Below are positions 1 to 53,378 of a stretch of 64,000 bases of DNA, one piece after another. Position numbers and translations under genes: made by a program. Below the pieces are notes generated by a model. The model saw only the letters and a program-made list of their open reading frames with translations. It did no database searches and was not told the origin of the DNA. Numbering within the stretch: the stretch's first letter is position 1; each line of letters begins with the position of its first letter. This DNA comes from Cyanophora paradoxa CCMP329 (taxonomy: Eukaryota > Plantae > Glaucophyta), in assembly GCA_004431415.1 (NCBI GenBank), contig QPMI01000632.1, positions 1 through 64,000 on the forward strand, in the 5' to 3' direction.

Positions 1-2525
1 GGCCAGGATCTGCGGCACGTCCATCGGTGCAGCCTTGTGCACCCAGTCGATCTCCATTTTCCGTCGCTCTTGCTCTTTCCTCGCCGAGGGCTTGCCCTGA
101 TCTGCGGTCGTCCACAGGTTCTCAGAAGGACGGATGGAGAGCTGGCGGAGCCGGGCGGCAACGCTCAGGTGCCTGGAGGGCATGGAGGCGCGCCTGTCTC
201 CGTTGTGCTCGGCTTTCAGATCCAGGTACGTCTCCACTGCCGGCGCCTCGGTGGGGAGGCCGGGGCCGTTGGGGCCGCCGCCTGACTCGCGCCAGTGTCG
301 TGCAGCATCAGAGGCGCGAACGGGCGTCACGCTGCACCGCCGAACGGACAGCAGCAGGTGCTCGCCCCCCTTCACCCCTGTGCCTTCGCCCTGGCCCCGC
401 AGCCGCCTCACACGGAACAGCAGCTGTACGATGTCGTCGGCCTCCAGTAGGGGCATCTTGGCGTCGAAGATTCCGTAGATCTTGTCGAAGTGCGCATCCG
501 AGAAGTCCACGCCCGCCCCCAAGGCCGACGTCGCAATGACTGCGTCGCAGGTCTTGTAGCCGCCCTCCTCGGCCAGATCGAGCTTCTTCACGTGGACCCT
601 GCCGTCGTCACTGTAATCGAACTGTTTATCTCTAGCCTGCCCTATGACAATTCCAATTGTGAAGGGCCCGGGGGCGCAGGCTGGATCTCGCTCCAAGATC
701 TCGGCGGCCTGCTTCCTAAGTGCGCTTGCCAATGCCTGCGCCCGGCCTGCTGTCTCGACGATGATCATGGCGCGCAGGCCGCCGGGGCGGCACCTTGACA
801 TCAGGTCACGCTCGACGGCGGTGGGGCTGTCTGACAGGCGCATCCGCCAGTCGCAGGTCCGCCGATGGTTGAATAGGAGGGCGAGCCGAGCCCCCGTTGC
901 TGCCGCCGACTTGCCAAGGAAAGCGAGGTCCGTGGGCCTCACGTAGCCGTCCAGCGCGACGATTTCCTGTGCGCCCTCGATTCCCCGCCAGAGACGGGCG
1001 CAACGCAGGTTGCGGGGGAGGCTCCGCGCCCCCAGCCCACCGGCCACGGGCTCCAAGGTCGAGCTCAAGGTGAAGTGTCGCGTGAGGGAGGAGAGCTCGT
1101 CGAGCACGACCAGGAGGCGCCCGCCGCCGCCCTCGCCCAGGTCCTCGAGCCCCTGCCAGTCGTCCTGCACCTTGTGAGCCGAATCGATCGTGCAGATGAC
1201 GACCTGTATCCTCGGATCGCGGAAGCCCCACGTCCCGTGAGCGCTCTCGGGGTCCTTGGGGCGCCAGACGTCCGAGTAGAGCACGGCGACCGAGGGGAGG
1301 GAGGCTTCGTCGAGGCGGCGCTTGAGGTCGCGAGAGAAGGCCCGACGGCAGGTGAGCACGAGGATTTTGCGCTTCAACTCGAGCGCCGGGCGGACGTAGG
1401 CTTCAATCAGCGCCTTCGTCTTGCCGGTGTTGAGCCCGCTGCAGATCACGTCGATCCGGCGGGGCGCCCCGGATCGGGCTTCAGTTCGCCAAAGGTCGAT
1501 TCCAGCAGCTCGCGGCTCAGGTACCGCTCGTCCACCTCCCTCGCCGCAAATGGAGCATGGCCGACGGATCGCAGGGCGAGGAGGAGGGACGGGAGGGCGG
1601 TGTCAAGGGAGACGCCGCGCCGAAGGTCCGTTGCGTAGGATTTCGTCTTGGCGCCGCCGCCTCCATCTGAGAGCCTCGCCTGCAGGCTGAAGTTCCAGAT
1701 CTGGACCTCCAGGCGGGAGTTCGGACGCGCCTCCACCTCGAGCTCGAAGGCCAGCGACCCGTCGGGCTCCGTCCTCGCCTGCAGCACCCTCGACGACTCC
1801 AGGCGCAGGTGCACCCCGAGCGCGTCCCCCGCCCTCTCCAGCTCGCCCCGAACCGACATGCTGCCCCGCAGGAGAGCGAGGGCCCGCTTGAGGATCTCGC
1901 CCGCGGCTTGGTCTCCAGCGACCTGTACCCCAGCGGCCTGCTCTGTACCCCTCTCACCGGCGCCTTGTTCCTCTGTCCCTCCATCGGTCCCTCTCCGCTG
2001 GCCCGCCGCCTCCGTCCCTTCTTCGGGCAAGTCGTCAAAGAAGTCCGCGGGCAGATCTTCCAAGAAGTTTGCAGGCAAGCCTACAGCGGGAGCCCCTTTA
2101 GCTCGGCGCAGGCTTACCCCCCCGTCAGGCTCGATGCAGAGGCGGAGCTCCGACCCAGGCGCGAGGCCGCCGAAGAGCCAAGAGAAGATGGTGGAGGCCT
2201 CGGCGCCCTGCAGAACGAAGTGCGCGCTCTGTCCATCCTCCAGCTCGCGGGAGAAGCTGACGCCCCCCGTCCTGCCCACGACAGCCTTCGCGGCATCGCA
2301 AGCCGACTCGCCGGGCGCGACCTGGCAAGGATTCACGCCCGGGGCGAGGCTCAAAGCGTAGACCACCCCCATCGCAGGCGACCAGGCCTTGGAGACCGAG
2401 ACGAACGGGAAGCATGCAAAGAGATCCTCTTCCTCGGCATCTAGATCTGCCTCCTCGGCGAAGGGCAGCTCGTCTAGCAAGTTGACGTGCATAATGTTCG
2501 TTTTGATTTCGCAGTTGATATGCAT
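1..2525 (-). CDS. Intronless SF2 helicase of the herpes UL9 / NCLDV replication-origin-binding protein type; one frameshift near 1460-1500; runs off the left edge
   Basis: ORF 1446..2594 ends ...REVDERYLSRELLE. A second minus frame, open from about 1470 to position 1, reads IDVICSGLNTGKT (Walker A, 1440-1417), KILVLTCRR, VVICTIDS, LLVVLDELSSLTRHF (Walker B), EIVALDGY, IATSALGAGVDFSDAHFDKIYG and VQLLFRVRRL. This is the motif order of UL9-like origin-binding helicases. Confidence 0.75.
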
Positions 2526-2712
2526 GAGTGCTTCAGAAAAAGTCGAGTGCAGCACAACCGACGGCCTGGCGGGCAGGAGGGGTTGGGGGATCACAGCCCT
2601 GCTAGGGGGTACTCAATATCATGGCATCTAGAGGACCGGGGTACAGGCAAGAGCTCGAGCTCTGCAGACTTGCGGGATGTGACCACCTCTTGGAAACTTC
2701 TATTAGAACTTT

Positions 2713-3321
2713 TCATGAGGTGGACACAACATGTACAGCTGCAGCTGGGCGACTTACAGAGTGCACATCCTTTGCTTCAGCTATCTTGCGCGCCTTTGCT
2801 ATCGCATCATGAGCGGCAAGGCCGTACTCTATCACTGCCGGTTGGCCTGGGCGAAAAGAGACGCGCCAGTAGCGGCTTTCCTTTGATTCTGCAGACAGCT
2901 CGTCAATCATTGCTTGGACTTGGCTCTGTTCGTAGGCTCGCTTCCTCCTCTTTGTCAGACACTTGCCTTTGTTGCTTGGAAGCTTGTCGCCTGCCACAGG
3001 AACCGCCCCAAGCCGACCTCCGCAGTCCATGAGCCGTAGATTCTCCCTGCGCAGGTCCAGCTTGCACCCGCTGATGCTGTCGACGCGCCAGTCGTCGTTG
3101 GGCAGGCCGAGGGGGTACCCGAATAGAAAATGATGAGCGTAGGCCACCTTCCCGTCTGGCAATACTGTGTACGGCCAGCTCTGTCCATCCGCAGAGGCTA
3201 CTTGCCATTGGTACATCCAGAGCGCTGGTGCCCGTCGCTTGTCTACTGTAAAGCTCGTGTAGCCCCCGTTTGGGAGAAGGGCGAAGATAAAAGCTGCATT
3301 CCAATCAAATGATCCAGACAT
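2713..3321 (-). CDS. Intronless HNH-AP2-like protein with degenerate HNH active site
   Basis: FTVDKRRAPALWMYQW...AHHFLFGYPLG...WRVDSISGCKLDLRRENLR matches the phage/viral HNH_3 pattern (VDHINGxxLDNRxxNLR) with H>S and N>L. The C-terminal YWRVSF...EYGLAAHDAIAKARKIAE resembles an AP2-type DNA-binding domain. First ATG is at 3321. Confidence 0.6.
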   Translation of the reverse strand: MSGSFDWNAAFIFALLPNGGYTSFTVDKRRAPALWMYQWQVASADGQSWPYTVLPDGKVAYAHHFLFGYPLGLPNDDWRVDSISGCKLDLRRENLRLMDCGGRLGAVPVAGDKLPSNKGKCLTKRRKRAYEQSQVQAMIDELSAESKESRYWRVSFRPGQPAVIEYGLAAHDAIAKARKIAEAKDVHSVSRPAAAVHVVSTS

Positions 3322-5440
3322 ATTGCAAATGATGCCGCTGGCTACTACTGGGCTAGCGCTGCCGCACTTGACGTGCTGCTTCAAGCTAAGCTCACTTTGC
3401 CCTAGGCTCAGAAAATGTTGGGCCGAATCAGAAGCTGGCCCGAGAGGGGTACAGCACTTAGTTAGCACCCCAGTGGAGTTAGCCCCCGCGGGGCCCCAGA
3501 GGGGTAAGGCAGTCTGTCAGCAGCTGTGCTTGTTGGTGTCCGCGCGAGGGGTACGCTGACTGTTACTGCCCCGCGTGGGTTAGTGCTAGCCCCCCCTGTT
3601 AGTGTCGGGTGTACGAGATCGCAATATAACACTCAAATCTCCGTGATGCGTGACTCACGCAAACCTCCGAGGGTTAACAATGGATTCATAAAGCTCGAGA
3701 GCTGGCGGTTCGCGGATTCCAGGTCGACGCCCACATATATAAAGTCTTTCTTGGCCCGGCCGCGGCTGATCAGATCCGCCGCGCAGTTCCTGAGCCCGCT
3801 ATCATCCGCCCCACCAACACCGAAGCGCGTGCCCACGCCCGCGCTCGAGCTCGAGCTGAATGCGCCGCGCCCGCGGCCGGCACTTGAAAGTGGTTCGGCC
3901 AAAGCGCTAGCCATTGTTTCAAGTCTGCCACAGCTCTCCGCATCTTGCGCCGGCCGTGGTCGCACTCCGTCTGACACGCCAGGCTGCAGCGCCAGCTGCC
4001 TCGCCCGCGGCCGCGGCCGTTGCAATTGACCATGCATATGACTCTTCGCGCGTGCTGCAGGGATTCTCGCGATCGGCGCACTCGGCACTCCCTCGACTCA
4101 GGACTTGCCTTCTGGATCCGCTGCTGCAAACAGCATCGGTCGCCCCGAGCTCCGCACTCTGCGAGTCCCACGTGCGCCGCGGCGCGCGCCAGCTCTAGAT
4201 CTAGATCTGCCGGCCGCCTGGGCGCCGCGGCGCCCCGTGCTGGATGCTCATCCCCACGAAACTTCTGTGCAGCTATTTTGGTGTCTGCGACTGACGTTTC
4301 GAGCGTGGATCTCGTCGACAAAGCCTCATGCCGGCATCACGTCTTTGGTCCGTGCCCGGCCGCCCTTCCGAGGCGTTCTAGATGTGGGTCTCGGCCCGGC
4401 GCCGGCGAGCCTCTGCTGACGAAGACGCCCCCTCCTAGTCCCCAAGGCTTCCGCATCCCGGGCGGCGGCGCATACGCACGCGATGCACGCTCGGCCCGTC
4501 CGCACGGTGCGCCCCGTTGACGTCGAACTCATCCCCGCCCGCCTTCGGTTTAACTTCCAGAGGGCCGCAGCGCGCCGCAAGGCAGCACTAAGAGCTATCG
4601 CCGGACGTCGATGTGCACGTGGCGGGGCCGGCGCCCGGCCATGTACATTAGATCTAGATCTAGATCAGTAGACCTCAGTCTTTCTTTCCGTTAACGTTCC
4701 TCGTCGCATATTAATATAATGTAATCGATATCGAAGGAAACTACGTTAGATATCGATCTAGAACTTGCTAGCGCTGTTGTTCTTTCTTTCATGATTCAAC
4801 TTCGATTTCGATGTGATTTGAACTAAGCTGGATCATCGGATATCGACAGATGTACATCGATACTATGATAGAGTGAAAAAGTACATGATAGATACTAGTA
4901 CTACGATGCGTTTCGGTCGACCCTGTAAGACGAATCTTATAATTAGACGATGGAAAGCTTCGCGTGGGGCAACTTGCCCGGAAATTCAAACCGTGAACAG
5001 CTGCAGAAAGCTGCATATGCATGCGCAGGGCCTCGGCGCGGCCTCATGCATATATATAGCTGAAAAGGAAGCCATGAACCAAATCTGTACGTGGCTGCAA
5101 CTGCGTCTACTGCTCAAACACGAAGCGTGTGCAGGTTGTCAGTTGTACTACAGTATGAGCGGTGCTGAGCGTTGGCAATTAAATGAGACTTGACGACTGA
5201 AAAAAAATGGAAGCGCCGAGAGGCCGAGAAGGAACCACTACAACAGCTTGAATCTAACAATAATAAAAAGCTATCAAGACCTCTACAAAAGGCGGCACCG
5301 CAGGCGGCGGTGCCACTGTACATGTACTACCCGAAATAAAATACACTTGATAAAGCTGATATCGCATCGATATATCGCGAAGAAATTGCCGAGTTGGCAG
5401 CGCAAGTGCGCCCATGAATGCGGGCGGCCTCGACCTCGCC

Positions 5441-7414
5441 CTACGCGCCGGCCCCCGAGGCGCCGGCGCGGAAGTCGCGGAAGAGGACGACGAGGATGGT
5501 GCAGTTGTCCGTGCTCTTCCGCCCGTACGCCTGCGCGCGCAGTCAGCGGGGGCCGACGCGGCGGGGCCTCCGCAGAATCTGATTCGAACACGGGGGCGCC
5601 CACCTTGTCGCAGACGGCCTTGCCGGCGGCGGCGGGGTCGCCCGTCCTGACGAGGGCCTGCCGCGCGATGCTGACGGCCTCCTTCGACTCCAGCCGGTTC
5701 CATATGCCGTCCGTCGCCACGATCAGGAACTGATTCGAATTCGATCGTCAGATGGACTTTGGGGAACGGGCGCGGGCGCGGCGCCGGCAGCGCGCGGGGC
5801 GCACCTCGTCCTCCCCCGTCAGCTTCGCCTCCAGGATCTAATTCGAATTTGATCGTCAGATCGAGTTCGGGGATTGGGCGCGGCCGCGGGTCGAACCTCG
5901 GGCTCGCAGGTCACAACGTCCGGGCCCAGCTTCTCGGCGGGGAAGCACTGCGGGGCGACTGTGAGGCGCGATCGCGAGCACAACCCCCCGATCCGATACA
6001 ATCGCGTACCCCAGCTCGGAAGTCCTTGAGGCAGATCTCCCCCATCGCCCGGCTCATGGACAGGTACCCCAGGATCTGCGGGGGAGGGTAAAGAGTCAGG
6101 AACCGGCGGGGGTACCGCGAATCGCGAAGTGCGCGCCATGCCCTTGTCGTCGATCCAGGCGCCGTTGCGCTGCACGCGCTCGAGCTCGTCCCGCCGCGCC
6201 GACGGCCGGTGGTCGCAGCTCATGTCCACCGCCTTCCCGCCCCTGCACAGCACCGCGCGGCTGTCTCCGACGTTGCCCTGCGCGGGCGCGGCGAGCCCGG
6301 GTCAGACGCGCGGCCCGCCCGCGCGCTTTTCGTGAATTCCGGATGCACCACCGTGCAGACGCCGTCGAGGATGACGGCGAAGCAGGCCGTGGAGCCGCTC
6401 ACGTCGTTCGTCTCCTTGGCGCGCTGCAGGATGGCCCGGTCCACCTCCGCCACGCCCTGCCGGATCGCCGACTTTGTGTCCGCGCCCGTCTGCGCGATCT
6501 GCGCGACGACGGCGTCAGCGCTTGCAGCGGCCGTGCGCTCTCCTCGCTTGGCTCGCGGCGGCGCGCCTTCTCTATCGATCTCCGCAGCATTTCCGAGCAC
6601 GTTTGCGCCGTACTGTCGCCTGCGTGGCCATCGAACACTCCTGCAGGGGCGCGTCGATCAGGCCGCTGCGGCCGGCGGCCGGCCGCGGCGGGGCGAAGCG
6701 CACCGAAGAAGCTCCCGCTCTTTCCGCACGCCTCGAACGCCCCGATGGCGTAGCGATCCTCCTGGGACTGCCGACCGCGATACTCAGATAAGATAAGAAG
6801 GCGTGGCCTCGCGCGGGCCGCCGGGGTCTCACGTCGCGAGGGCCCTGGAAGCTCTGCAGGCCGTACGGGTGGAGCGCGCCGGTGCCGACCGAGACCGACG
6901 GCAGCGAGCGAATGATTGACTCGAGCTTGTTGTCGTCTCCGAACATGCTCGCGATTTTACTGAAGAAGCCGCGCTCCTCCTTGGGCTTGGCATCCACGTT
7001 CAAGTCCGCAACGATCACGGAAGGCTTAGAAGTCGGAGTGGATGAGCCCCACTGCCCCTTGCTGTCAAAGAGCTTTCCACCTCTCTGCGAGCCTCCGGGT
7101 GTCCCCGGGCCGGTGCCCCAGCCCGCCGACATCGCTCCGTGCATCGAGTTCTCGCGGCTGTACGAGCCGAACGAGCCGTGGCGAGAGCTGTCGCGGCTTC
7201 CGCTGCTCTTGCCGCCGTGCATCGAGACATCCGACTCAGAGCGATCTGCAGATCAGGAGGGGCGATCAGCCCTCCCCCGCGCGCACGCGCGCCCGTTCCG
7301 CGCGCGCGCGCGCGGCCGCATGCCGCGCGGCGGGACACGCGGCATGGCACCTTTGTCCTTTCCGTCTTTCCCCAGCGACTTGAAGAAGCTGAGAAGCGCC
7401 CCGTCCTTCGGCAT
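5441..7414 (-). CDS. Protein phosphatase 2C (PPM family), multi-exon
   Basis: Spliced motifs QGPRD|SQEDR, VFDGHAG, SGSTAC, GNVGDSRAVLCRGG, DHRP, LSMSRAMG, FLIVATDGIW and STDNCTILVV. ATG at 7414, TAG at 5441. Confidence 0.9.
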
Positions 7415-14289: not shown

Positions 14290-15652
14290 CCCTGCTGATT
14301 TGCTGCGCGGGGCTCTCCAACGTGCTAAAACGACGTAGAACGTTAGTTACAGCTGAGTGCCACGCTCCACACGCACGCACATGCAAGTCTCTCAACCTCC
14401 TTGTCGATTTGAGTTGTGATCCCCTTCAAGAGTCAGCTGCGGGCGCGCGACGTCAGCGTAAATCGGCGACTTCAGCCGATCCAGCACCGAGGGATCAAAC
14501 GTGCGCGGGGGGAAGGGGGCCTATGATCTCTAAGGAGTGAACAAAGCTCGGCAAATCGTGTCACGGGGGCACCTGCGAAGCCGGTCGAGCGCTTCAAACG
14601 GGTGCTGATTCTCCACGGGAGCGATGCCCGGCCGCTCGCCGGCGCGCCGCAGCCCTCGAATCCAACGCGGTCGGGCAGTCAAGAGTGAGGAGGGGGAACA
14701 AACGGCCGTCGCACATCTACCCCCCCTGCGCGGCGAAGCATCAAATTCGAACTACCGTGAAGCTTTCAATCTGCGCAAGCAGCGCGGCAGTTGACGCCGA
14801 CAGAGGCACCGGCGTGCGCCGCGACATACTGCACGATCGTCGCACGTAACGCGGTTCACGGAGGCATGCGCATGCGCAAGCTCGCTGTACCATCGATATC
14901 GCGGAGTCGACGTCCGCGGCCGGATATCACAGCGAGAAAGAGCTCGGGGGGCATGCGCAAGCTCGCGCGATCGATAGCGCTGCATGCGCACGTGTACATC
15001 GACATCCGCGGCCGGATCCACGCGTACGCCGATGGCCTAGCGCGCAGCCACCGTGGCATGCGCACCCTCAAGGCTTCTCTCGCGAGCCGGACCACTGCCA
15101 GGCTGGGCCTGGCCACGTGCACAAGATTATAATTAAATATTAATATTGATATCGATATTCTTAAGTGAGGTGCGTGTACGTAATTATAAACGACCCAAGC
15201 CATACCACATGTACATTGTATGCTAGCGCTCTCATTGCTACTCTGACGTCGACAGCAATCTCTGAGGTTCCATCGGTATCTCGTAAATCTCTACCTGAGC
15301 TATCGATCCAGCTATATCGATATCCGGGTGGCGGATGTCTAAATCTTCGATCTGTACCTTGAAAGGAATGTCGTCTATCTGAAATGACACACACGTTTCA
15401 CTCATGACCAAAATTACCAGATCTGCCTGCAACTGAGAAGTGCCTCGGAGTCCGAGATAAACTTGCGCTCGAAAGTAGCGTAGCTGTCTGTGCGAAACGT
15501 GAAATGTTGGAGCAATTATAAAATGAAAAAGAAGAGAATTCAAAAGTCTTAGACAGTTCCCTACAACACCATCCGTTAACAAAGAACATTATTCTTAAAC
15601 TTTAGTAAAGCCGAGTATTAAGTGTCAATCAAATGCTCGCGTGGATAAACCA

Positions 15653-18600
15653 TCACCGGGCGGGAGCCTCGGGCTCGGGGGGCGGGGGCGGGGCCCGGCG
15701 GCTGTGGCGGGCGACGGCCTCCATGAGGACCTGCCGCCGGATCTGCCCGCCCCGCCGCCCCCCGCACCGTCAGCCGGCCCCGCCCCGCCCCGCCCGCCCC
15801 GCGCCCGGGCACGGGCGCACGGGCTTGCAGAGGAAGGCGTCGCCGCCGAGGCGCAGCGCCTCCTCCTGGTCCTCCGGCATCGCGTTCGCCGAGAGGTACC
15901 TGCCGGCCCCTCGGCCCCGGCCGGCCGGGCGGGCGGGGCGGGGCCGTACACGATGGGGACGCGCCCGGCGACCGCCCCGGAGGCCTCCAGCGCGCGGATC
16001 TGCGAGCAGGCGCGCCGCCCGTCGCACACCGGCTGCGGCCCCCGCGTTACCCCGCGGAACGGAGCGGAGACCGAGCGAAACGCGGCGGACCATCTCCACG
16101 TCTGCGCGCGGGGGGCGGCGCTCAGGGACGGCGAGCGGCGGGGCGGGCCCAAGGGGCGCGGCGGGCGCACCGAGGAGGATGAGGTCGACGCGCGCCGGGT
16201 CGGCCCTGTACGCCTCTGCGCCGCCCGCCTCGGGCTCGGCGGGGGCGGGCCGGGGTCGGGGCCGGGGGCGGCGGACCGATGCACTGGAGGCCGTCCTCGC
16301 GGTGGCGACCTCGCAGCCGCCGAGCTCGAGCATCTTCTTGGCGAGCACCAGGTTCGTCCGCACGTCGTCCACCAGCAGCACCCGCACCCGCCCGCAGGAG
16401 CCCCGCCGCCGCCCGTGCCGGCGGAAGCAGCCGCGGCGGCCTCCGAGGGCTCGGCGCCGCCGCGGTGCTGGGCGGCAGAGCGGCCGGCGCTGAGGCCGGC
16501 GGCCCCGCGCCCGCGCCCGCGGGCGAGCCCGGCGGGCCGCCCTCCTCCGCGTCGTTCAGGCTGCGGGAGCATCAGCAGCGGAGCGGAGGGGCGAGCGGGG
16601 GCGCGGGGCGGACATGCGGAGGAGGGCGCGGGCGAGCTGCGAGGGGAGGACGGGGCTCCGATGCACTCGGCGGCGACGCGCGCGGCGGCCGCCTCCTCCG
16701 ACTGCGCGCGGCGTCGGGGGCGCGGGGCGGGCGGGGCGGGGGCGGGGGCGGGCCTTGGCGGAGAGGAGCGCGAGGGCGCGCCGCCGCGGGAGCGGCCCCG
16801 CGGCGAGCGCCGCCACGTCGCCGATCGCCACCGCCGCGCCGCCGACGTCGTTGGGCCGGCCCGCCGCGCCGGCCCCGCGCCGCGCCGTCCCGCCCACTGC
16901 CGCGCGCGTCGCATCGCGAGGGCGGACGCGAGGGGCGGCGGGGCGGGACCTGGGAGACGTAGAACTCGAGCAAGTCGGCGACGCCGGCGCTCGCCGCGAG
17001 GACGGCGCACACGGCGCCCCGCAGCCGCGGCCACTCCGGCTGCTCGCCCTGCGCGCGGCGGCGCGTGAGGCCGCCGCCGCAGAGGCGCGCGCGCCGCCGG
17101 GCACCTCCTGCAGCTGCAGGACGGCGGTGGCCCAGAAGCGGGAGCCGCGCCCGGGCTCCGACTCGACGCCGACCGCACCGCCCAGGCTCTCCGCCAGCCG
17201 CTTCGCGATCGCCTGCCGCCGCGTGAGGCGCGCCGGGCGGGGCCCGCGGGAGAGGCGCACGAGGCCGAGGCCGGTACCCCCGTACATCCGCGTGACGTCA
17301 TCGGCCGCAAGCTGCGCCGGCGGCGCTCGGGCGGGGGCGGCGGGGCGGGAGGGCCGGCGCGGGCCCCGGACCTGGCCGTAGGGGCGGAAGAGGAGGTGCT
17401 GGTGCTCTGCGGGGCGGGGCGGACTCAGCGGCGGCCGCGAGGGCCGCTCGGCGAGCATCGAGCGGGGCACCCTTCGCGATGCCGATGCTGCAGGCGGCGG
17501 GGTTAGGGCGCCGGGCAAAGGGCGGCCTTCGAAGGGCGCGCACCCGGTGTCGGTGACGGTGAAGCGGAGGGTGGCGGAGGCGCCGGGCCCGCGGGCCGCG
17601 AGGTCGACCCGCAGCTCCACCCGCCCGCCCCGCTCGCTGAACTTGATCGCGTTCGACGCGTAGCTGGCGAGCGGGCGGGGTCAGCCGGCCGGCGGAGGGC
17701 GGGGCGGGCTCGGGTAGAGGGCACTTCATGACGATGCGGCGGAGGCGGACGCTCTCGCCGACGACGAGGCGCGGCACGGCCGGCGGCACGAGGAGCAGCA
17801 GCTCGACGCCCTTGTTCCGCGCCCCGCCCGCCAGCAGCGCCGCCGTCTCTGCCGGCGGCGTCGGCGGGGCGGGGGACGGGCGGGGGCGGGGCGGGGGCGG
17901 GCCCTCCATGTGCTCGACGAGGTCGAAGGGGGCCGGCCGCGGCTCCGCCCCGCCGCCCTCCTCCAGCCGCGAGTACTCCAGGATCTGACCCCCGCCCCGC
18001 CCCGCGGCGTCAGGCAAGGAAGCGTGCCGGCCGCCGCCTCGTCCGGGAGGGAAGCGACGCACGTCGTTCATGAGGGAGACGAGCAGCTCGGTCGCGGCCC
18101 CGATGTGCTGCACGTACTCGCGCTGCTCAGGGGAGAGGGGCGTGTCGCGGATGAGCTCGTGCGAGGCCGCGATCCCGTTCAGCGGCGTCCGCAGGTCTGC
18201 GCGCCCCCGCTACCCCGTGAGCGGGGGCCGCCGCGATCGCGCGGGGCCCGCGCGAGGGAGCCGGACCGTGCTGCGGGGCGCAGACCCGATCAGGCCGGAG
18301 AGCGCATCGATGGAACGAGAGCGGGGCGCGGGCGGGCGCGGCGGACCGTGACCATGGCGAACCAGCGCCTGCGGACAGCCTGCAGCTGCTTCTCGGCGCG
18401 CACCCTCGCAGACACGTCGCGCTGCGGCGCCCCTCGCGATCGGACCGGGCGCCCCGCGCGGGCTGGCGGGCGGGCGGGCTGCGGCGGGGCGCACGATGAA
18501 TGCGGAGTAGCTCTTTCCCTCCGAACTCGCCTCTGCGAGGTCCTCTTCTTGCTCCCCCGCCGCCTCCTCCAGCGACGTGAAGCAGACCTCCACTTCGATC

Positions 18601-21600
18601 TTGCCGCTGGGGCACAGGGCGACACCGTTCCACACCTGAAGCCGGTTAAAGGCGGCGGCGAATATGACGGAGCGCCGCGCGCGCGCACCCGACCCAGGAA
18701 GAAACCGCGATCGTCCGTCGATATCGAGCCGCGCCTGCCCTTTGGGCTGCAGATGGCCTCCAGAGAGCTCGCAGGGCGCTTCGGAGGGGCCCTCAGCTCC
18801 TCCAGCGCAGTAACTTGCGGCCCCTCGATCTCCAGCAGCTCCGACAGCGCCTGCGCCCCGCTCGAGCCGAGCTCCGCGCGCTGGCCGAAGGAGAAGGGCG
18901 GGGGCGGCACCTTGCCGACGAGGGCGGAGCGGGGGGCGCGCCAGAGGCGCTCGCTGGCGGGGTTGGCGGCGACGACGCGCGCCGCCCCGTCAAGCGTCAC
19001 GATCGCGTCGTGCGCGCTCGCTGCGCCCCGCGGCCGCTCGGACGCGGCGCTGGGCGGGCGGGCGGGACGCGGGCGGGACGCGGCGCCCCGCACCGAGGAC
19101 GGCGGCGATCTCCGCGAAGCTCTTCCGGAGCCGCTCGTAGAGCCGCGCGTTGACGATCTGAGGCGAGCGACCCGCGCGGGAGCGTCGGAAAGGGGCCGCG
19201 CGCTCGAGAGCCGGCGCGCAGGGCGGGGCCGGCGCACGGAGACGGCCATCTGGGAGGAGAGGATGCGGAGCGTGTCGACGGCGGCGGCCGGGAAGGCGCC
19301 CCGCAGCAGCCGGTTCTCCAGGTACACCGCCCCTGCCCCGCCGTCAGCTGCAGCCCGGCGCGAGACGGGGCGGGGCGGGCGGGCGGGGCGGGGCGCGCCG
19401 ATGGCGCGGGCCTTGTGGGAGATCGGCAGCGCGAGGAGGCTGCGGACGCCCGCGCGCTGCACGTACCCGTCCCCCGCCACCGCCGCCGCCAGCGGCCCCT
19501 CGCCCTCCTGCGGGCCCTCAGCGCGGCGGCGGGCGGGGCGGGGCGGGTGGGGCGGACCGTCCTGGAGCAGTCCTGGACGATGGCGACCTGCTCGGTGGCG
19601 AGGGCCCACTCGACGGCGCGGACGCAGAGCTGCTCGCCGCACTCCGCGAGCGGCGCGCCGCGCAGGACCTCCGTGTGGATCGACGTCGTTCCGAACGCGG
19701 CCGAGGGACGGCGGCTCGTCGGCGTGTGGACCACCTCCCCGCTCGCCTCGACCTGCGCGCTTCAGCGTCGCCCGCGGCGCGCGCGGCGCGTCGGGCGCGG
19801 CTCGCACGTAGTATTGGGGCGGGCCCTGGGGCGGCGTCGGCGCGGCGCCCCCGTCCTCGTCCACGTCGTGCTCCAGGACCTGCGCGAGGACCGGAGTGAG
19901 CGGGGCGGGGGCGGGGATCTGGACGTTCCGCCTGCGAGGCCCCGCGCACCAGGAAGCCGCGCTCGCCGCCGGAGATCTCGAGGATGACGACCATGAGGCG
20001 CTCGAGCAGGCGCCCGAGCTCGATCTCCCGCGAGATGAACTGGCTCGCCGACGCAAGCGTCTCCCTGCCGGGCGGGACGGCATCGGCACCTCGCCACGCG
20101 CAGCTGCGCGCCGCGGGTTCGCAGCTCGCACCAGTTCAGTGCATCGCTCTCGGATGAATCTCGGATGCCGTCCGAAATCGATACCGAGCTCTTGGGGGCG
20201 GCGCGCGGCGGCGGCGAGTTTGGCCGCGAGCAGGGGCGCTGGAGAAGGCCCCTTGTTAAAATTGAGAGACTGGGAGACCGAGGGAAGTTTCGTACCGCAG
20301 GGGGCGATCGCGAGGCCTCGAATGAGGCGCTAGCAGCCGCGGCGATGGAGGAGTCCGCCCTGTCCGGCGCCACTAGAACCGCGTCGAAGCCGCCCGGCCC
20401 GACGGACCAGAAGCTGCCGCGGCGGGAGCCCGGCTTCCGCTTTTGGCTCTCGTTCGCGGTCACAGCGGGCTCCAGTACATCGCACTCCAGATCCGTGCTC
20501 TCCACGACGATCTCGGGTAGCGGCGGCGCCGCGGCGGCGACCCCCGCCTCGGAGACGAGGGCGCGGAGGGCGGCGGCGCGGGGGGCGGCGCCCCAGGCCT
20601 CGAGGGCGGCGGCGGCGACCCGGAGCGGCCCCGACGCCATGCGGCGCAGGCCGAGGTCCACCGCGAGCGACGCAAGCCGCTCGCCGGCGACGGCGCTGCG
20701 GGCGCGGGACGCGGGCGGGGTCAGGGGCGGCGGGGGCGGGGCGGGGCGGGGCGGGGGCGCGCGAGAAGAGGTGGAGGCGCTGCTCCTCGCCGGCGTCGCA
20801 TGCCGCCTCGTACAGCGCCATCGCCTCCGCCGCCGCCCCGCCCGCCCGCCCGCGCCGCCTCCGCCCGCATCACAAGGTGCCTGCCCGCCCCGCTCGCCCT
20901 CGCGGCCGGATGGGGCGGGCGGGCGGGGCGGCGGGGACCGGGGCGGTAGGCGAGGGGGAGGCGTCGGCGAAGGGCGCCATGCCGTCGCAGCAGCGGCGGA
21001 GGCGCTCCGCGAGGCCGGCGCGCTCAGCCGCTGAGAGCGGCGCCGCATCGAAGGACGGCTCCGCCCGCCCCGGCGAGAGCCGCTGCCGGAGGCGGCAGCG
21101 TGAGCGCCGCGGCGCGGGCCGAGCGCGCGGCGCGGGGCGGACCACTCCGATGGCGAGGGCGGTGGCGAAGAGGTAGTCCTGGTACGTCGTGTACCCAACC
21201 CTGAGGAGGACGACGTTCGGGTTTGCCGCGTCGAGCTCCTCGACAAATCGCCACGCCTGCGCGACGCGCGTACGCGTTGCCGGGGGGAACACGTCCGCTG
21301 CTGGGGCAACGCCCTCGGATGCGCACCGTGCCGAAATCGCCGAGGAGGACGCACAGCATGATGGAGAAGTTCGTGTACAGGGCTTTGGCCCTGAACGCTC
21401 GGTCACGAGCGACTTCACAAGGCGACGACGCCCGGCTGGTTCCGCACCAGCAGGGCAGGCCGGCGAAAATCTCGCGGAGGCGGCCCGCGTCGAGCGCCAG
21501 CCGGCCGCACGGATTCCCCTCCGCCGGCGCCAAGACAAGCTCCAGGGGCGGCGCCCTCGGGCCGCCCGCCGAGGCCCCGTCCTCGCCCTGCGACGGAATC

Positions 21601-24600
21601 GAGCTCGCCCCGGCCGGCGCGTCTCTCGCGGCGAGCCGGGCCGCGCACCTGCAGGAGCGCCGAGACGAAGGCGAGCAGGTTCGAGACGACGGCGTAGATC
21701 TCGTGCTTCCCCTCCACGAAGCGGTTCACGGACACGGCTGTGGGATCCAAGCTAAGCCGCGGGCCGCGGCGGACAAATGTGGAAATTGGAACGGGGCGCG
21801 CATCGCTCGTGGACGGAGTAGAGGGGCTCGCAGGACCAGAAGGCGGCGCCGCCCATGCAGGTGCCGGCGATGCAGGCCGAGACGACGTCCCCGGTGGAGA
21901 GGGCGAGCCTGTACGCGCTGTCCCCGATCTGCGCGCCGCCGACCTCAACCGAAGCCCGGCGAGAGCTATGTATGCGGATGAGGCTGCGCCCACCTCCAGC
22001 GATGTGGAGAACGGCTCGGCCAGGACCGAGGCGAGGGAGCACCAGAGGAGGGTCTGCGGGTGCGCCGGTCGCGATCAGCCGCGGGGCGCCGAGGGCCCGG
22101 GCCTATAGGAGTTTATCCCCTTACCTTGGCATCCACACTCGCATAATCATCTTCTGCCGAACGGGAGGCGAGCGCCAGGGCGACCTGCAGGGGCTTCAGC
22201 GCGCGAATGCGGCGGGGCACGAGGGTGCGGCTACCTTTGCGCAGGTCGCCGCGTGCCGAAGAGTCGCGTCGGTGGCAACGCACGCCTGCGCCAGGATCCC
22301 CGCCAGCAGCGCCGTCTCCGGGGCCCGCCCGTGCCGAAGGCTCAGCAGCAGGCACCTGGCGCGGACAGATCACAACAGCGGCCATATATATGAAAGCTCT
22401 CCGGCCGCGCGCGGCCGCACGCACCGCGCGGGGATGAGGCAGAAGAGAACGGGAAGCTGGCTCAAACGGACGGAGAGGGCCGTGTCGGCGCCGACCTGCA
22501 TCAGATCCAGAATGTCTGCACAAAAGCTCAGCGCCAATCACCACCCAAGTCGATCACGTCGGCCGCACCGCTGTCGCGGCACTCCGGCAGGGCGGAGAAG
22601 GCCGCGACCACCTTCTCTCCCCTCTTGTCCAGCTCCGCCGCGGTGCCAGAGAGCGCGCTCGCTATCTCGCTCATCTCCGCCTCGACGTCGTCGAACGTCG
22701 CCTCTGCCCGGCCGTCAGCGATCGCGAGCCTCCCCGCGCGCAGCGAGGGCCGCGGGGCCACCGAAGGAGAAGGAGATGCCCCACAGGGAGCGCAGGCAGT
22801 CCAGCCCGGCCTCCGCGCTCTCCCGGAAGCGTCCCGCCGTGCTCAGGAACGCGATGCGCAGGCGGTACGCTGCCGCCGGCGTCACGGGCGGAGGGCTGCG
22901 GACGGGGGGCGCGCGGCGGGGCGGCACCGCTCAGGCGCTCGGCGCGGGTCTCGGCAAGCTGCCACATCGACGCGATCTCCGCCTCGGCGGCCGCGTAGGC
23001 GCCCGAGAGGTACTTGCACTCGGCCAGCGCGAGCTGCGGGCGGGGGGACGCTCAGCGGGCTTCGGCGGGCTTCGGCGGGGCGGGGCGAGGGCGCGCCGAG
23101 AGGGAGAAGCGGAGGGGGCGCAGCTCGCCGTCGCGGCCGGAGAGGGCGAGGGCGCGCAGGCCGCAGGCGGCGTACTCGGCGCCGCGGGCGTACCCCGCGC
23201 AGCGCCGCGCCCGGCGGGCGGCGAGCAGGTCCAGCTCCGCGATCCCGGCGAGGGCGGCCGCGTCGGCCCCCGCCGGCGGCTCCTCCAGGCACGCGTTCAG
23301 CAGGTTCGCCACCTGCGCCCCGCTCGGCGCCGGCGCCGGCGCCGGCGGCCGGGGCGGGGCGGCGGCCCGGGGCGGACCTCGTAGAGGTTGGCAGCCTCGG
23401 CGGGCTCCCGCATGGCCCCGCGGAGGAGCGTCCCCGCGCGGAAGCAGAGGTCGCTCCGCTCGCGCGCCCCCACCATGTCGTGCGCCGCCTGCGCCCCCCC
23501 GCGTCAGCGGCGGCCCGGCGGGCGTCCCGAGGGGCGGCGGGGGCGCCTGCTGGATCTTGTCGTGCTGGAAGGAAAAGACGGCGTCGCCGGCGCCCTGGAC
23601 GAGGAGGCCCGCCGCGAGCGCCGGCTGCACCGCCCGCTGGCTCTCCTGCGCCCCCGCCCTCAGACGCGGAGAGAGCCGCTGCGGAGGGGCGGGCGGGCCT
23701 CCTCGGAGGCGCCGGTGATGGTCGCGAGCATCGCTGCGTCGAAGGCCGCCCCGCAGCAGCTCGCCACCTGCCGGCCCCGCTCAGCGGCGCGGCGCCGGCG
23801 GGGGCGGGGGCGGGGGGCGGGCCTTGAGGAGGGCCTGGGTGGCGGGGGGCAGGGCGAGGATGGAGAGGGCCGCCATCTCCGCCACGTCGTCCCCTCGTGC
23901 ACCGCGTCCACCTGCCCCGCCCCGCCCTCGGCCCCCGCCGCCGCCGCCGGCCGGGGCGGCGCGGCGGGGCGCACCTCGGCCTGGCTCCAGGTCCAGCGCC
24001 CCGAGGGGTAGTCGAAGTGCAGCGCGCGGCGCTCGACCAGCGCGCGCAGCAGCTGGATCTGCGGCCCCGCCGTCGGTCGCGGGCGCGGCGCAGCGGGGCG
24101 AAGGGGCGAGGCGGGCGGACGGTGTGGAAGGGGTTGCCGTGGGCCTTGCGCACGAGCGACGCGGCCAGCGCCTCCGACCGCTCGTCCTCCGGGGTTTTCA
24201 GCTGCCGCCCGCGCGTAAGAAGCGGCGCGGCGGGCGGGGCGGGGCGGGGCGGGGGGCGCGCCGTGGCGGCGAGGATGGCCTGGCAGTCGCCGCGGCGCAG
24301 GGGCGCCAGCGCCAGCTCGTGCACCGGCACGACCTCGCGGGGGGTGAGGCGGGCGGCGCCGCGCGCTCTGCGGGGGCGGCACCTTGGCGGCCCGGCGCAC
24401 GAACTGGGCGACGGCGTGCTCGTCGGAGACCTCGCAGCTCCTGCGCCGGCGCTCGCCGCCCGGTTGCGGGCTCCGGGGCGGGGCGGGGCGGGGCGGACCG
24501 GTAGGTGGCGCAGAGGGCGACGGGGAGGTCCGACGCGAGCACAAAGTCCGCGAGGGAGAGCGTCTCGGGGTCCGCCCACTGCGGCCGCCTCAGCGGCCGG

Positions 24601-26476
24601 CGACACGGGGCAGGGTGGGACGGGCGGGCGGGCGGGCCTGGAGATCGTCGAGGAGGACGAGGGTGGGCAGGCCGGGCGCCGAGACGGCCCGCAGCAGGTC
24701 CACCACCAGCGACCGCAGCCGCGCCTGCAGCTCGGCGGGGCGCGCCTCGGGCAGCGGGGGCGGGGCGGGCCCGAGCAGGAGCTTGGCGGCGGGGGCGACG
24801 TCGACGAGGAGGCGGGCGCGGGGCCCGAGGGCGCCGGCGACGGCCTCGCGGCGGCGCGCGACCTCCGCGGGGGCCCCGCCAGCAGCCCGCAGAAGAGGTC
24901 CTCCAGCGCCCGGAACCAGACCGCCAGCGGCGCCCGGTTGTACTGGTCCGCCTTCCCGTACAGGTGCCGCGCCGCCGCCCCTCCGCCGCCGCCCGCCGGC
25001 ACAGCTCCCGCGCCGCCATCGTCTTCCCCGCGCCCCTGCCGCCGCGTCGGCCGCCCGGCGGGCGAGGCGCGAGGGGCGCTGCAGACGCACGCGGGCCCGC
25101 TGACGACGATGAGCGCCGGCCGGGCGCTCTCCTGCGCGGCCGTGTCAAGAGGCAGCGTGAGCGGGGGGCGCGGGGCCGGCACCTTGGCGGCGCGGCAGGC
25201 GTCGAGGGCGCGGGCGATGTCCTGCGGCGCAGCGTGAGCGCCGCGCGGCTTTGGGGCGGTTTGCAACAGAGGAGTGGACCTGGGTGGGGCCGCCGCAGGG
25301 CGCGTCGGGCATGCTGAGCCGCGCGCTCACGTCCCGCTCCCCCAGGCCGAACGTCTCCTGCCCCCGGCCCGCGCGGTGCAGGTCCCGGCACCTGCGCGCC
25401 GGGCCCGGGGCGTCAGGGGTACGCCGGGGCCGGGCGGGGGCCGGGGTCGCCTCCTGAGGTCGTGGAGGAGGCCCCAGGCCGACTGGTAGCGGTCCGCCGG
25501 CGTCTTCGCCAGCAGCCGCTGCGTCCCGCTCGGGGGGTACCGCGCGGCCGGGGAGGAGCAGGGGTACCTCGACGATCGCCTCGAAGGCCGGGGGTACGAC
25601 GGGGTTCAGCTGCGTCACCCGAGGCGGCCTGCGGGGCGGTGGGCGGGGCGGGGTAGAAGGGGTGCGGGGAGGCCCCGGGGCACCGCTTCGCGAGGTGCCC
25701 GTGGAGGTACTCGAGCGCAGTGGACCCCTCGAACGGCCGGCGGCCCGTCGCGCACTTGAAGAGCACCAGCTGGGGGGGAGGGGTCAGGGGTACGGGAAGG
25801 GAAGGGTCGCGCGGGGCCGGCCCCGCACCCCGAGGAGGTACAGGTCGGACCGCTCGTCGGCCCCTGCGGCGTCGGCGTCAAGGCCCCAGCGGCGGGGCGG
25901 GAGGGGCGGGCGGACCCTCAGAGACGCCCATCCTGCCGGAGAGCTCGGGAGCCGTGTACGCGTACCCCTCCATCGCCTCCGCCGGCTCCGCGCCCGCGGC
26001 CTCCCCCCGCGGCTCCGCATTGCCGAAGCGCACGAGGACTGCTGCGCATGCGTCGCGCGTCAAGGCCCTGCGGTGAGAACGGGGTGCACGGACGTCCCCA
26101 GCGCACCGGTCCTCGCGTCCTCGCCGCCACCAGCTCCAGAGCGATCAACGCGGAAGAAGATGTTGCGCGGCTGTCAGGGGGATCGGGGCTCAGCCACTTC
26201 AGCGAGTGAAGGAAGAGATCAAATCTTCGCACCCGGAGCGCGGACAGTAGCAAGCCGCGCGAGGAATCCGAGCTCGAAGGTTCATGCGCGGCATAGAGCG
26301 CGTCGGCGAGCGCGACGCTGAGGTCCAGCAGGCGTGTGGCGTCGAAAGGTCCAGCTTGCGCGATAGTTCTGCTAGGAGAATGGTACGGGTCGGGGGGTCG
26401 AATGGGGTGGTCGAGGTTGGTTCACAGCGCGATTTGACCTGTTAAGTTCTTCCCATCCTTCGGTCGGGTCCATCAT
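15653..26476 (-). CDS. Multi-sensor hybrid histidine kinase, copy A (pseudokinase C-lobe, AAA/STAND ATPase, helical region, GAF, PAS, HisKA, HATPase_c, REC); dozens of introns
   Basis: Spliced motifs [27 protein letters not shown]|GAGKT, LLDDLQ|[38 protein letters not shown]|H|[20 protein letters not shown]|IGI, GGTGLGL, GRGSRF, LVDD, ILL|DVEM|P and FLCKP. ATG at 26476, TGA at 15653. Confidence 0.9.
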
Positions 26477-30628: not shown

Positions 30629-33600
30629 ATGGATAAAAGCGATGGCTTGGATGCGTGGGAAGCTCTAAACAGGTGAGCCGTGCGCAGTCGCGCCCGGGTT
30701 GTGTACCGTATATGTATATGACGCATGCATCCTGGGCAGGGTTGTTCAACGCGACGGTCGTTTCAATTCGGCACGCCTCCTGGACCTCAGCGTTGCCCTT
30801 GCCGAAGCGCTCTATGGCGCGCACGAAAGAAGCGGGCTGGGCGCGTCGCGCGGCTTGCTCCTGTCCGCGCTCCGAGTGCGAAGATTTGATCTCTTCCTTC
30901 ACTCGCTGATGTGTCTGAGACCCGATCCCCCCGGCAGCCGCGCAACATCTTCTTCCGTTTAGATCGCTCTGGAGCTGGTGGCGGCGAGGACGCGAGGACC
31001 GGTGCGCTGGGGACGTCCGTGCACCCCGTTCTCACCGCAGGGCCTTGACGCGCGACGCATGCGCAGCAGTCCTCGTGCGCTTCGGCAATGCGGAGCCGCG
31101 GGGGGAGGCCGCGGGCGCGGAGCCGGCGGAGGCGATGGAGGGGTACGCGTACACGGCTCCAGAGCTCTCTGGCAGGATGGGCGTCTCCGAGGGTCCGCCC
31201 GCCCCTCCCGCCCCGCCGCGGGGGCCTTGACGCCGACGCCGCAGGGGCCGACGAGCGGTCCGACCTGTACCTTCTTGGGGTGCGGGGCCGGCCCCGCGCG
31301 ACCCTTCCCTTCCCGTACCCCCTGACCCCTCCCCCAGCTGGTGCTCTTCAAGTGCGCGACGGGCCGCCGGCCGTTCGAGGGGTCCACTGCGCTCGAGTAC
31401 CTCCACGGGCACCTCGCGAAGCGGTGCCCCGGGGCCTCCCCGCACCCCTTCTACCCCGCCCCGCCCACCGCCCCGCAGGCCGCCTCGGGTGACGCAGCTG
31501 AACCCCGTCGTACCCCCGGCCCTCGAGGCGATCGTCGAGGTACCCCTGCTCCTCCCCGGCCGCGCGGTACCCCCCGAGCGGGACGCAGCGGCTGCTGGCG
31601 AAGACGCCGGCGGACCGCTACCAGTCGGCCTGGGGCCTCCTCCACGACCTCAGGAGGTGACCCCGGCCCCCGCCCGGCCCCGGCGTACCCCTGACGCCCC
31701 GGGCCCGGCGCGCAGGTGCCGGGACCTGCACGGCGCGGGCCGGGGGCAGGAGACGTTCGGCCTGGGGGAGCGGGACGTGAGCGCGCGGCTCAGCATGCCC
31801 GACGCGCCCTGCGGCGGCCCCACCCAGGTCCACTCCTCTGTTGCAAACCGCCCCAAAGCCGCGCGGCGCTCACGCCGCGCCGCAGGACATCGCCCGCGCC
31901 CTCGACGCCTGCCGCGCCGCCAAGGTGCCGGCCCCGCGCCCCCCGCTCACGCTGCCTCTTGACACGGCCGCGCAGGAGAGCGGCCGGCCGGCGCTCATCG
32001 TCGTCAGCGGGCCCGCGTGCGCCTGCGGCGCCCCTCGCGCCCCGCCCGCCGGGCGGCCGACGCGGCGGCAGGGGCGCGGGGAAGACGATGGCGGCGCGGG
32101 AGCTGTGCCGGCGGGCGGCGGCGGAGGGGCGGCGGCGCGGCACCTGTACGGGAAGGCGGACCAGTACAACCGGGCGCCGCTGGCGGTCTGGTTCCGGGCG
32201 CTGGAGGACCTCTTCTGCGGGCTGCTGGCGGGGCCCCCGCGGAGGTCGCGCGCCGCCGCGAGGCCGTCGCCGGCGCCCTCGGCCCCGCGCCCGCCTCCTC
32301 GTCGACGTCGCCCCGCCGCCAAGCTCCTGCTCGGGCCCGCCCCGCCCCGCTCCCCGAGGCGCGCCCCGCCGAGCTGCAGGCGCGGCTGCGTTCGCTGGTG
32401 GTGGACCTGCTGCGAGCCGTCTCGGCGCCCGGCCTCCCCACCCTCGTCCTCCTCGACGACCTCCAGGCCCGCCCGCCCGCCCGCCCGCCCCGCGCCGCCC
32501 GCCCCGCGCCGGCGGCCGCTTAGGCGGCCGCAGTGGGCGGACCCCGAGACGCTCTCTCTCGCGGACTTTGTGCTCGCGTCGGACCTCCCCGTCGCCCTCT
32601 GCGCCACCTACCGGTTCGCCCCGCCCCGCCCCGCCCAGGAGCCCGCAGCCGGGCGGCGAGCGCCGGCGCAGGAGCTGCGAGGTCTCCGACGAGCACGCCG
32701 TCGCCCAGTTCGTGCGCCGGGCCGCCAAGGTGCATCCCCCGCAGAGCGCGCGGCGCCGCCCGCCTCACCCCCGCGAGGTCGTGCCGGTGCACGAGGTGGC
32801 GCTGGCGCCTTTGCGCCGCGGCGACTGCCAGGCCATCCTCGCCGCCACGGCGCGCCCCCGCCCCGCCCCGCCCGCCCGCCGCGCCGCTTCTTACGCGCGG
32901 GCGCGCAGCTGAAAACCCCGGAGGACGAGCGGTCGGAGGCGCTGGCCGCGTCGCTCGTGCGCAAGGCCCACGGCAACCCCTTCCACACCGTCCGCCCGCC
33001 TCGCCCCTTCGCCCGCTGCGCCGCGCCCGCGACCGACGGCGGGGCCGCAGATCCAGCTGCTGCGCGCGCTGGTCGAGCGCCGCGCGCTGCACTTCGACTA
33101 CCCCTCGGGGCGCTGGACCTGGAGCCAGGCCGAGGTGCGCCCCGCCGCGCCGCCCCGGCCGGCGGCGGCGGCGGGGCCGAGGGCGGGCGGGGGCAGGTGG
33201 ACGCGGTGCACGAGGGGACGACGTGGCGGAGATGGCGGCCCTCTCCATCCTCGCCCTGCCCCCGCCACCCAGGCCCTCCTCAAGGCCCGCCCCCGCCCCG
33301 CCCCGCCGGCGCCGCGCCGCTGAGCGGGGCCGGCAGGTGGCGAGCTGCTGCGGGGCGGCCTTCGACGCGGCGATGCTCGCGACCATCACGGGCGCCTCCG
33401 AGGAGGCCCGCCCGCCCCTCCGCAGCGGTTCTCGCCGCGTCTGAGGGCGGGGGCGCAGGAGAGCCAGCGGGCGGTGCAGCCGGCGCTCGCGGCGGGCCTC
33501 CTCGTCCAGGGCGCCGGCGACGCCGTCTTCTCCTTCCAGCACGACAAGATCCAGCAGGCGCCCCCGCCGCCCCTCGGGACGTCCGTCGGGCCGCCGCTGA

Positions 33601-52584: not shown

Positions 52585-53378
52585 TCGGCCGCTGCTCATC
52601 GGGTTTCCCTGTTTTTTACCGAAATCCACGTTCCGGCCGATCGGTCGCGTTTAGTTTGATGTCTGTCGACGTCGCTGTAGATATCCATTTATGCTTTCTA
52701 TATCGTGTACGAAATCTTTCTCGCATAGGAACGTTGACTGCCTTCTTTCGCGTCGCATGTTGCGACATTTCGATCGTACATGTACAGCTCTTTTCAATCA
52801 TGCGTCATGATGATCATGAGTGCATCTTGTCAATGCCCATTCGAATTCGGGCATATAACTTAGTAATATACGATTTATGAGTGGTACAGTATATATTCTG
52901 TGCATCACCAATCGCAAGTCGTAGAAGCAGAAGCACACGCATCAGACCGGCTAGCCTGCAGCTGGCAGCCTGTAACATAGCCTGGTAGAGAAGATCATGG
53001 TCAAGACAAGAGTTAGGAAGAAGTAAGAAAGCTAAGAAGTAGGAAAGCTATCTATAGGGAACTACATTAAAAGTGGTAGGGTAGCTAGCGAAGCAGGCAG
53101 AGAAACCATATCAAATAAATAAGACTACCGGGTGCTGGTGCCGAACGTTGATCATGACGCCGACGGACTATTGCGGTGGAGGCGCGGCGGGACCAGATAC
53201 CGATGGCCATGGGGCCCGTTGTGCGGCGCCGGAGGGCCGGGGGAAAGGCCGGCCACTGCCGCCATGCATATGCCCCGAGGGGCCCGGCCCAGCCCCGGGC
53301 CCGGGGGGCCCTCCCGGACCCACGCTCGTAACCAAGCCCCAGGGCGAGCTCGAGGGCGCCCGCAGCCGGGCGGGGCGG

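Follow-up and report, generated by a model that had tools for sequence, protein, structure and literature searches.

What kind of DNA forms the left edge of contig QPMI01000632.1 of the glaucophyte alga Cyanophora paradoxa CCMP329, where two virus-type genes stand side by side in GC-rich eukaryotic DNA? We analyzed positions 1 to 64,000 of this contig (hereafter, the window), whose first genes encode a helicase and an HNH-like protein. A previous sequence-only reading had taken them for the right end of a larger, unclassified virus-like element, either a giant-virus remnant or a self-replicating element. According to our results, positions 1 to ~3735 hold the right end of one copy of a repeated, likely self-replicating, integrating DNA element, a reading to which we give a probability of about 0.6. 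The claim of a right end has held up, the genes being multi-copy and the boundary sharp and common to the copies. On the left, the match of gene model P0002, which is 99-100% identical to the window, stops at base 4, so the start of the window is most likely the end of the contig, cutting the element there.

In the window, the helicase gene is split between two minus-strand open reading frames (ORFs; 2594-1446 and 1449-1). An extra base at 1470 is present in all three DNA runs compared, where it accounts for the whole depth (267.1/267.1, 154.1/154.1 and 84.7/84.7), and the gene models of two other copies (P0001 and P0003) read in frame across the break. Hence, the helicase is one intronless ORF running from ~2525 to ~730 bp past the left edge of the window, with ~243 C-terminal residues beyond that edge, and the frameshift of the window at 1470 is most likely an assembly error. 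The HNH gene is the first of the two-gene cluster and lies on the same strand, with its stop at 2713 and the helicase ATG at 2525; the resulting 187 bp agree with the ~190 bp previously proposed between two co-oriented intronless genes.

The best-scoring family for the helicase was CyRepA1 of NCBIfam (NF042913), with an E-value of 6e-15 across the helicase core and 55.1 bits, below the cut-off of 200 bits. The Pfam family Herpes_ori_bp (PF02399) matched with 20.0 and 21.7 bits, a marginal result against its gathering cut-off of 20 bits and one limited to the N-terminal motifs. In the ESM Atlas, the Herpes_ori_bp and CyRepA1 clusters ranked first, and in a PDB sequence search four of the six matches, those at the top, were herpesvirus origin-binding protein (E 0.07-0.08). 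Using patterns that we wrote from the alignment, we found all seven helicase motifs (I, Ia and II-VI) in P0001 and P0003; each of the four subfamilies has motifs V-VI, and three of them have motifs II-IV, the remaining models being partial. A weak structure model (predicted local distance difference test, pLDDT, of 40) matched giant-virus origin-binding proteins among other superfamily 2 (SF2) helicases, and its comparison with 9hgi (Z 10.7, root-mean-square deviation 3.8, 168 residues) was tied with those of other SF2 helicases. Judged by these family matches and motifs, which bear out the helicase claimed before, the protein is classed as a UL9/CyRepA1-type SF2 helicase, of the replication-initiator class of viruses and plasmids.

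Upstream of motifs I-VI, the protein has an N-terminal part of ~330 residues, some of which is conserved in a sister subfamily (39% identity over 141 residues). It gave no match in Pfam, PHROG or NCBIfam, so that no intact AEP primase domain was detected, and no usable match in the ESM Atlas. The fold search, performed with a poor model (pLDDT 33), gave nothing at E-values up to 0.001. In the whole part of the element that is present, no primase or polymerase domain was detectable, and the Pfam, NCBIfam and PHROG scans found no HUH motif or family. The GC content of the helicase gene is 67%, which is host-like. By eye, we also considered whether the N-terminus might be B3-like or a decayed primase, and neither reading was supported.

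Regarding the HNH gene, the family matches are weak (Pfam HNH_3, E 0.048; phrog_99, E 0.003), and residues 35-96 share 40% identity with a phage HNH-AP2 protein. The motif VDH..DNRR of the phage protein reads VDS..DLRR here, and since its His and Asn are replaced, by Ser and Leu respectively, the protein is predicted to be nuclease-dead. Its 92 C-terminal residues matched no Pfam family at E-values up to 10, in a search where the AP2 domain of the phage comparator itself reached only 0.039. The ORF had no homologue at E-values up to 0.001, and none of four guessed starts led to an exact gene model. Of the HNH-AP2 module that had been proposed, then, the HNH part stands, with weak matches and its catalytic His replaced, while AP2 was not detected.

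To delimit the element, we used contig depth from four DNA runs (X1, X2, X5 and X13), which represent at most three samples, X2 and X5 being one. Public contigs were placed on positions 1-7000 of the window, with a second placement on 3600-3800. Ratios between single unitigs are rough copy estimates only, contig depth being no copy number. Long unitigs showed depths of 241-272 inside the element and 63.7 outside in X1, 118-149 and 32.4 in X2, and 61-63 and 17.4 in X5. Either side of 3732-3741, unitig depths were 303.7 and 63.7 in X1, and 458.8 and 99.3 in X13; the common unitig stops at 3732, with 4.8- and 4.6-fold the single-copy depth, respectively. The estimate for positions 1 to ~3735 is thus about 3.5 to 5 copies, against one for the sequence on their right. 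Single-copy genes, which the sequence-only reading had named as a sign against its proposal, were not what we found: both genes are multi-copy up to a sharp common boundary.

At this boundary, the copies vary at 3733-3735, as judged from unitig start points and mismatch counts, agree again over TATATA (3736-3741) and then enter different AT-rich flanks, with at least four distinct continuations; X15 shows such a change at 3741. The element therefore does not end at 3640, as previously placed, but at about 3733-3741, where the unitigs branch. The word TATATA occurs nine times in the 49 kb of host DNA within the window, and hence it either serves as a favoured target or belongs to the element end. 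The pattern inferred for one unexplained flank had no match anywhere in the window. Besides, a 68-nt junction with a depth of 43.9 was found as a single contig in X1 (eight of nine contigs shown) and was absent from the contigs of X13 (five of five); it may stem from a new insertion, or else be the junction of a circle or of tandem copies.

The helicase belongs to a family of 26 related C. paradoxa proteins on 21 named contigs, from which we left out P0022, an unrelated repeat protein. By helicase protein comparison they fall into four groups: the window's own (P0001, P0002, P0003 and P0008), B1 (P0005, P0007, P0011-P0020, P0023 and P0024), B2 (P0004, P0006, P0009 and P0010) and C (P0021 and P0025-P0027). 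Identities are mostly 83-100% within groups and 34-88% between them, the window's group sharing 34-59% with the others. Well-modelled members of B1, B2 and C are 95-100% identical within their group, the lower values going with gaps in the gene models. Contigs across 1063-1350 were found at 39-43x, and their loose ends, read by eye, translate to B1 peptides. In X1, X2 and X5, the depth of the sister helicase (43x, 39x and 38.5x) tracks that of the sister sub-terminal DNA (50x, 37x and 36x), so both probably travel together. The similar numbers of the ~48%-identical sister helicase and of this sub-terminal DNA suggest one sister element with ~40 copies.

Among close copies of the window's element, 10 of 13 listed helicase variants are synonymous, where 26-30% would be expected (p 0.0002-0.0007); for the HNH gene the figure is 4 of 7 (p 0.06-0.10). 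Both counts rest on 40 of 132 variant rows, and we dropped row 1078 (sister family), rows 2588, 2635 and 3372 (outside ATG-led frames) and all rows to the right of 3372. The synonymous excess fits descent through working copies and not decay. On two contigs, a pair of helicase models is separated by only two gene numbers (g8480/g8482 and g5896/g5898), a hint of a small or tandem unit; the contig end met after 3.7 kb of the element is a hint of a longer unit. In P0005, on a contig with two helicase copies, residues 1-101 are an unrelated segment fused to the B1 helicase model. This segment, without a Pfam or viral-contig match, may be another element gene or a host exon.

Outside C. paradoxa, word-indexed searches (~8,000 candidates each) found no relatives at E-values up to 0.001. 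A phmmer search of 1.84 billion representatives gave five matches, four of them family members and the fifth the unrelated P0022. Viral-contig scans gave no confirmed locus and a first metagenome scan no locus. A second metagenome scan, seeded with a CyRepA1 sequence, yielded 51 loci resembling cyanobacterial CyRepA1; it is biased by its seed and therefore offers no evidence of a cyanobacterial origin. We found no description of this helicase-element family in full-text literature, a coverage to which Repbase and subscription journals do not belong, and none of the contig or gene names searched occurred in the supplements of PMC12344493.

Next to the boundary, the sequence-only reading had noted a motif-repeat tract, which we recovered. 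GAGGGGTA occurs at 3444, 3499 and 3546, and repeated k-mers in 3421-3620, a region chosen after looking, exceed those of dinucleotide shuffles (p 0.003-0.016 for k = 5-8). The loose contig end of the sister family carries GAGGGGTA too. The tract is a candidate origin or a candidate set of protein-binding boxes. Its GGGGTA word recurs at 2606 and 2638, between the genes, and at 3112, in the HNH gene, and is found in reverse orientation within the low-complexity linker of the helicase (1909-1990). An Rfam scan gave one chance-level match, and a bacterial promoter scan, a method not applicable here, was empty. The coordinates of all features are given in Table 1.

Table 1. Features at the left edge of the window, with the evidence for each
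Feature	Positions	Strand	Evidence
UL9/CyRepA1-type SF2 helicase gene (assigned from sequence), ~1,085 residues in full	1..2525	-	family matches, motifs, models of other copies
HNH-like ORF of 202 residues, phage HNH-AP2 scaffold type	2713..3321	-	Pfam, PHROG, phage-protein alignment
Sub-terminal motif tract, GAGGGGTA three times, alternating with GTTAG..CCCC words	3421..3620		k-mer repeats
Segment common to high-copy sister family	3569..3686		unitig depth 36-50x single copy, plus 11x variant in X1
Right terminus of window subfamily	3687..3741		common sequence to 3732, variable 3733-3735, TATATA 3736-3741
Spliced antisense RNA from another copy	1745..3741	+	one run, labelled RNA by guess
Host DNA outside the element	3742..5529	+	single-copy depth, spliced plus-strand RNA

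Transcripts were sought in a run labelled RNA by guess, no run being listed as RNA on record; its sparse cover over the 3' part of the helicase gene was not used as evidence of silence. Inside the helicase gene, a plus-strand, antisense contig shows three splice-like joints (two GT-AG, and one readable as GC-AG), and adjoining contigs cover the HNH gene, pass the terminus and enter a different flank. This outward antisense transcript derives from a different copy. To the right of the element, plus-strand RNA forms a contig from 3931 with three GT-AG joints. One putative RNA contig (3931-5729) combines GT-AG introns of the plus strand (4171-4570) with introns of a PP2C-like gene on the minus strand, which suggests convergent overlapping transcripts of the plus strand and of this host gene; the plus strand of 3931-5729 showed no long ORF led by an ATG. 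Since the DNA to the right of 3741 is single-copy and has its own spliced RNA meeting the PP2C-like gene, it is host DNA. The 1.8 kb without recognisable gene that had been assigned to the element are mostly this single-copy, transcribed host DNA. They contain tandem TAGATC words at 4191-4210 and 4649-4666, whose many loose contig ends mark them as a genome-wide simple repeat outside the element.

Elsewhere in the window, a Polinton-like element of ~40% GC occupies 38901-50030. It has 298-bp inverted repeats (97% identical) and a 6-bp GGCGGG target duplication, and carries genes for pPolB, with its frame split near 47,350-47,400, and for an A32 ATPase, together with a weak rve match. Its capsid ORF is, by eye, nearly the same as the C. 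paradoxa capsid protein given in PMC10120064. The element lies in an inverted duplication of host DNA of ~10 kb with 89-96% identity (15652-26336 versus 30772-38900 and 50032-52585). Because it interrupts only one arm, the empty site is visible in the other, near 18206-18210. We found no similarity between its ends and the right end described here.

Taken together, these results indicate a real mobile-element family that is apparently young. Its working would come closest to that of a Polinton-like virus without a polymerase or of a plasmid replicon, and it is no more than a candidate member of either family. Because related proteins (CyRepA and the UL9-like helicases of mriyaviruses) and the Polinton-like viruses of streptophytes offer precedents, we propose that the element would excise as a circle, and that the helicase, given its family, would bind the sub-terminal repeat tract and open it as an origin, as described for UL9 and plasmid CyRepA. 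Host polymerases would then copy the element, as we detected neither a primase nor a polymerase domain in the part present. A recombinase, most likely of the tyrosine type, could come from the missing left part or from a sister element and insert copies at TATATA-containing sites. The HNH gene would be a passenger with a predicted loss of nuclease activity.

Within this reading, a capsid-encoding Polinton-like virus is slightly better than an even bet, and a small element without capsid falls slightly short of one. More tentatively, and against the odds, the element may represent a new class of eukaryotic mobile element, a small, capsid-less, plasmid-like replicon with a UL9/CyRepA-type core and TATA-like insertion sites, expanding in the glaucophyte nucleus. 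Such a replicon, in this equally tentative scheme, would replicate off the chromosome from a conserved sub-terminal origin and have given rise to tens of near-identical copies in four subfamilies. The hints in this direction are the paired helicase models, the host-like GC and the absence of the helicase domain from 156 catalogued glaucophyte elements.

Several observations weigh against a self-replicating, integrating element. It is known here from one end, and we found no recombinase, capsid or packaging genes in the 3.7 kb present. Its GC content (55-67%) is unlike that of the Polinton-like element in the window. Copy number can be read only roughly from contig depth, the helicase variant figures rest on 40 of 132 rows, and TATATA could be the element end and not the target. 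Regarding the origin, the motif tract is only modestly above chance, and the predicted folding of the sub-terminal DNA did not exceed that of shuffled sequence (z -0.46 and -0.60). Origins of the oriS type are palindromic, and there is no palindrome at this end. Finally, Table S6 of PMC12220804 counts PF02399 or tyrosine recombinase in none of 156 glaucophyte elements, and rve in 85 of them; PF02399 could have been missed there, because its Pfam score in our helicase is marginal.

One could argue that the element is a DDE cut-and-paste transposon with a TA-rich target, for which Tc1/mariner, Harbinger and Academ are candidate families, carrying the helicase as an accessory gene and its transposase in the missing left part. 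The sharp end by TATATA, the dispersed near-identical copies and the sub-terminal repeats common to subfamilies would suit such a transposon, sub-terminal motifs being typical transposase boxes. However, the helicase is of a replication-initiator class known from viruses and plasmids, and the copies differ in three bases just inside TATATA, a position where transposon ends are usually invariant; we consider this explanation unlikely. Lower still do we rate the idea that pieces of an inserted giant virus (Nucleocytoviricota) were passively multiplied at a later time. Such viruses commonly have HNH-AP2 genes, their origin-binding proteins are among the top hits of the low-confidence helicase model, and such insertions are reported in C. 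paradoxa (PMC12344493, section 9). Fragments multiplied passively do not account well for four subfamilies with near-identical copies on several contigs, ~40 near-identical sister copies, one end point with different flanks, or the synonymous excess, and no intact primase domain was detected before the helicase. The giant-virus remnant that the sequence-only reading had allowed for is thus disfavoured by dispersed near-identical copies, in four subfamilies, whose differences are mostly synonymous.

A rolling-circle element of Helitron- or mriyavirus-like type, in which a HUH nuclease elsewhere in the unit would work with this SF2 helicase, seems just as improbable as the giant-virus fragments. 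The end of the element is unlike the CTRR end of Helitrons, and the part present has neither a HUH motif or family match nor a terminal hairpin above chance, even though the paired helicase models two gene numbers apart fit tandem copies and some mriyaviruses do combine a HUH nuclease with a UL9-like SF2 helicase (PMC11253617). As for domesticated host genes that segmental duplication multiplied into a family, without mobility of their own, the host-like GC of the helicase gene, the purifying selection and the spliced RNA over the locus would speak for it. Yet the genes are intronless in an intron-rich genome and the spliced RNA is antisense, the copies have one precise end and unrelated flanks, and distant subfamilies share non-coding terminal DNA, all of which leaves this explanation highly improbable.

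If the self-replicating element is real, it matters because its helicase belongs to a class recorded in herpesviruses, giant viruses, cyanobacterial plasmids and some, though not most, Polinton-like viruses. An expanding element with several subfamilies in a culturable alga would allow tests of how integrated DNA elements without a polymerase replicate, and were complete copies to lack capsid genes, this would be a new transposition strategy for eukaryotes. How such polymerase-less elements replicate is a question that PMC10120064 leaves open; the same paper also records 366 capsid hits in C. paradoxa. Unclassified repeats make up 11.5% of this genome according to PMC6704402.

Among known systems, the HNH protein resembles phage HNH-AP2 homing endonucleases in that the N-terminal scaffold and the HNH region align, and differs from them in the His to Ser and Asn to Leu replacements of the HNH motif and in the AP2 domain, which was not detected. 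Helitrons encode a HUH Rep fused to a Pif1-type superfamily 1 (SF1) helicase, whereas the helicase here is of SF2 and its N-terminal part has no HUH match. With UL9, mimivirus R8 and African swine fever virus F1055L, as described in PMC11253617, our helicase shares the same motifs, a length of ~1,050-1,100 residues and a long N-terminal region. In contrast to herpesvirus UL9 and to the AEP-SF2 helicases of giant viruses and mriyaviruses, it has no detectable intact primase domain, and this end of the element has no palindromic origin.

CyRepA supports autonomous plasmid replication (PMC10079941), and CyRepA1 of cyanobacteria is similar in length to our protein (hhalign probability 94.8, 25% identity over 244 columns). 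The differences are the score of 55 bits against the cut-off of 200 and the nuclear, integrated and eukaryotic setting. A profile of 52 CyRepA1-like proteins matches only positions 318-634 of the 1,085, and neither Pfam nor this profile detected the N-terminal DUF3854 (Toprim-like) region of CyRepA1. Another close parallel is with Polinton-like viruses, mainly of streptophytes, that have a PF02399 helicase and a tyrosine recombinase, which are likewise endogenous and multi-copy in algal genomes, with a UL9-type helicase replacing the protein-primed polymerase. HNH genes occur there too, and the dispersed multi-copy insertions have a defined end, which in our case is the right end only. Table S6 of PMC12220804 counts PF02399 in 15 of 34 and tyrosine recombinase in 22 of 34 Polinton-like viruses of streptophytes; being counts only, these imply co-occurrence in one element without giving it per element. 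According to the same source, target duplications are rare in Polinton-like viruses with tyrosine recombinase, which are thought to circularise. Most of the streptophyte elements have this recombinase, whereas here there are only 3.7 kb without capsid, ATPase or recombinase genes. Since PMC12220804 already lists origin-binding domains of the UL9 type for some Polinton-like viruses, the label 'unclassified' given by the sequence-only reading is only partly right, although none of the 156 glaucophyte elements in that table is recorded with this domain.

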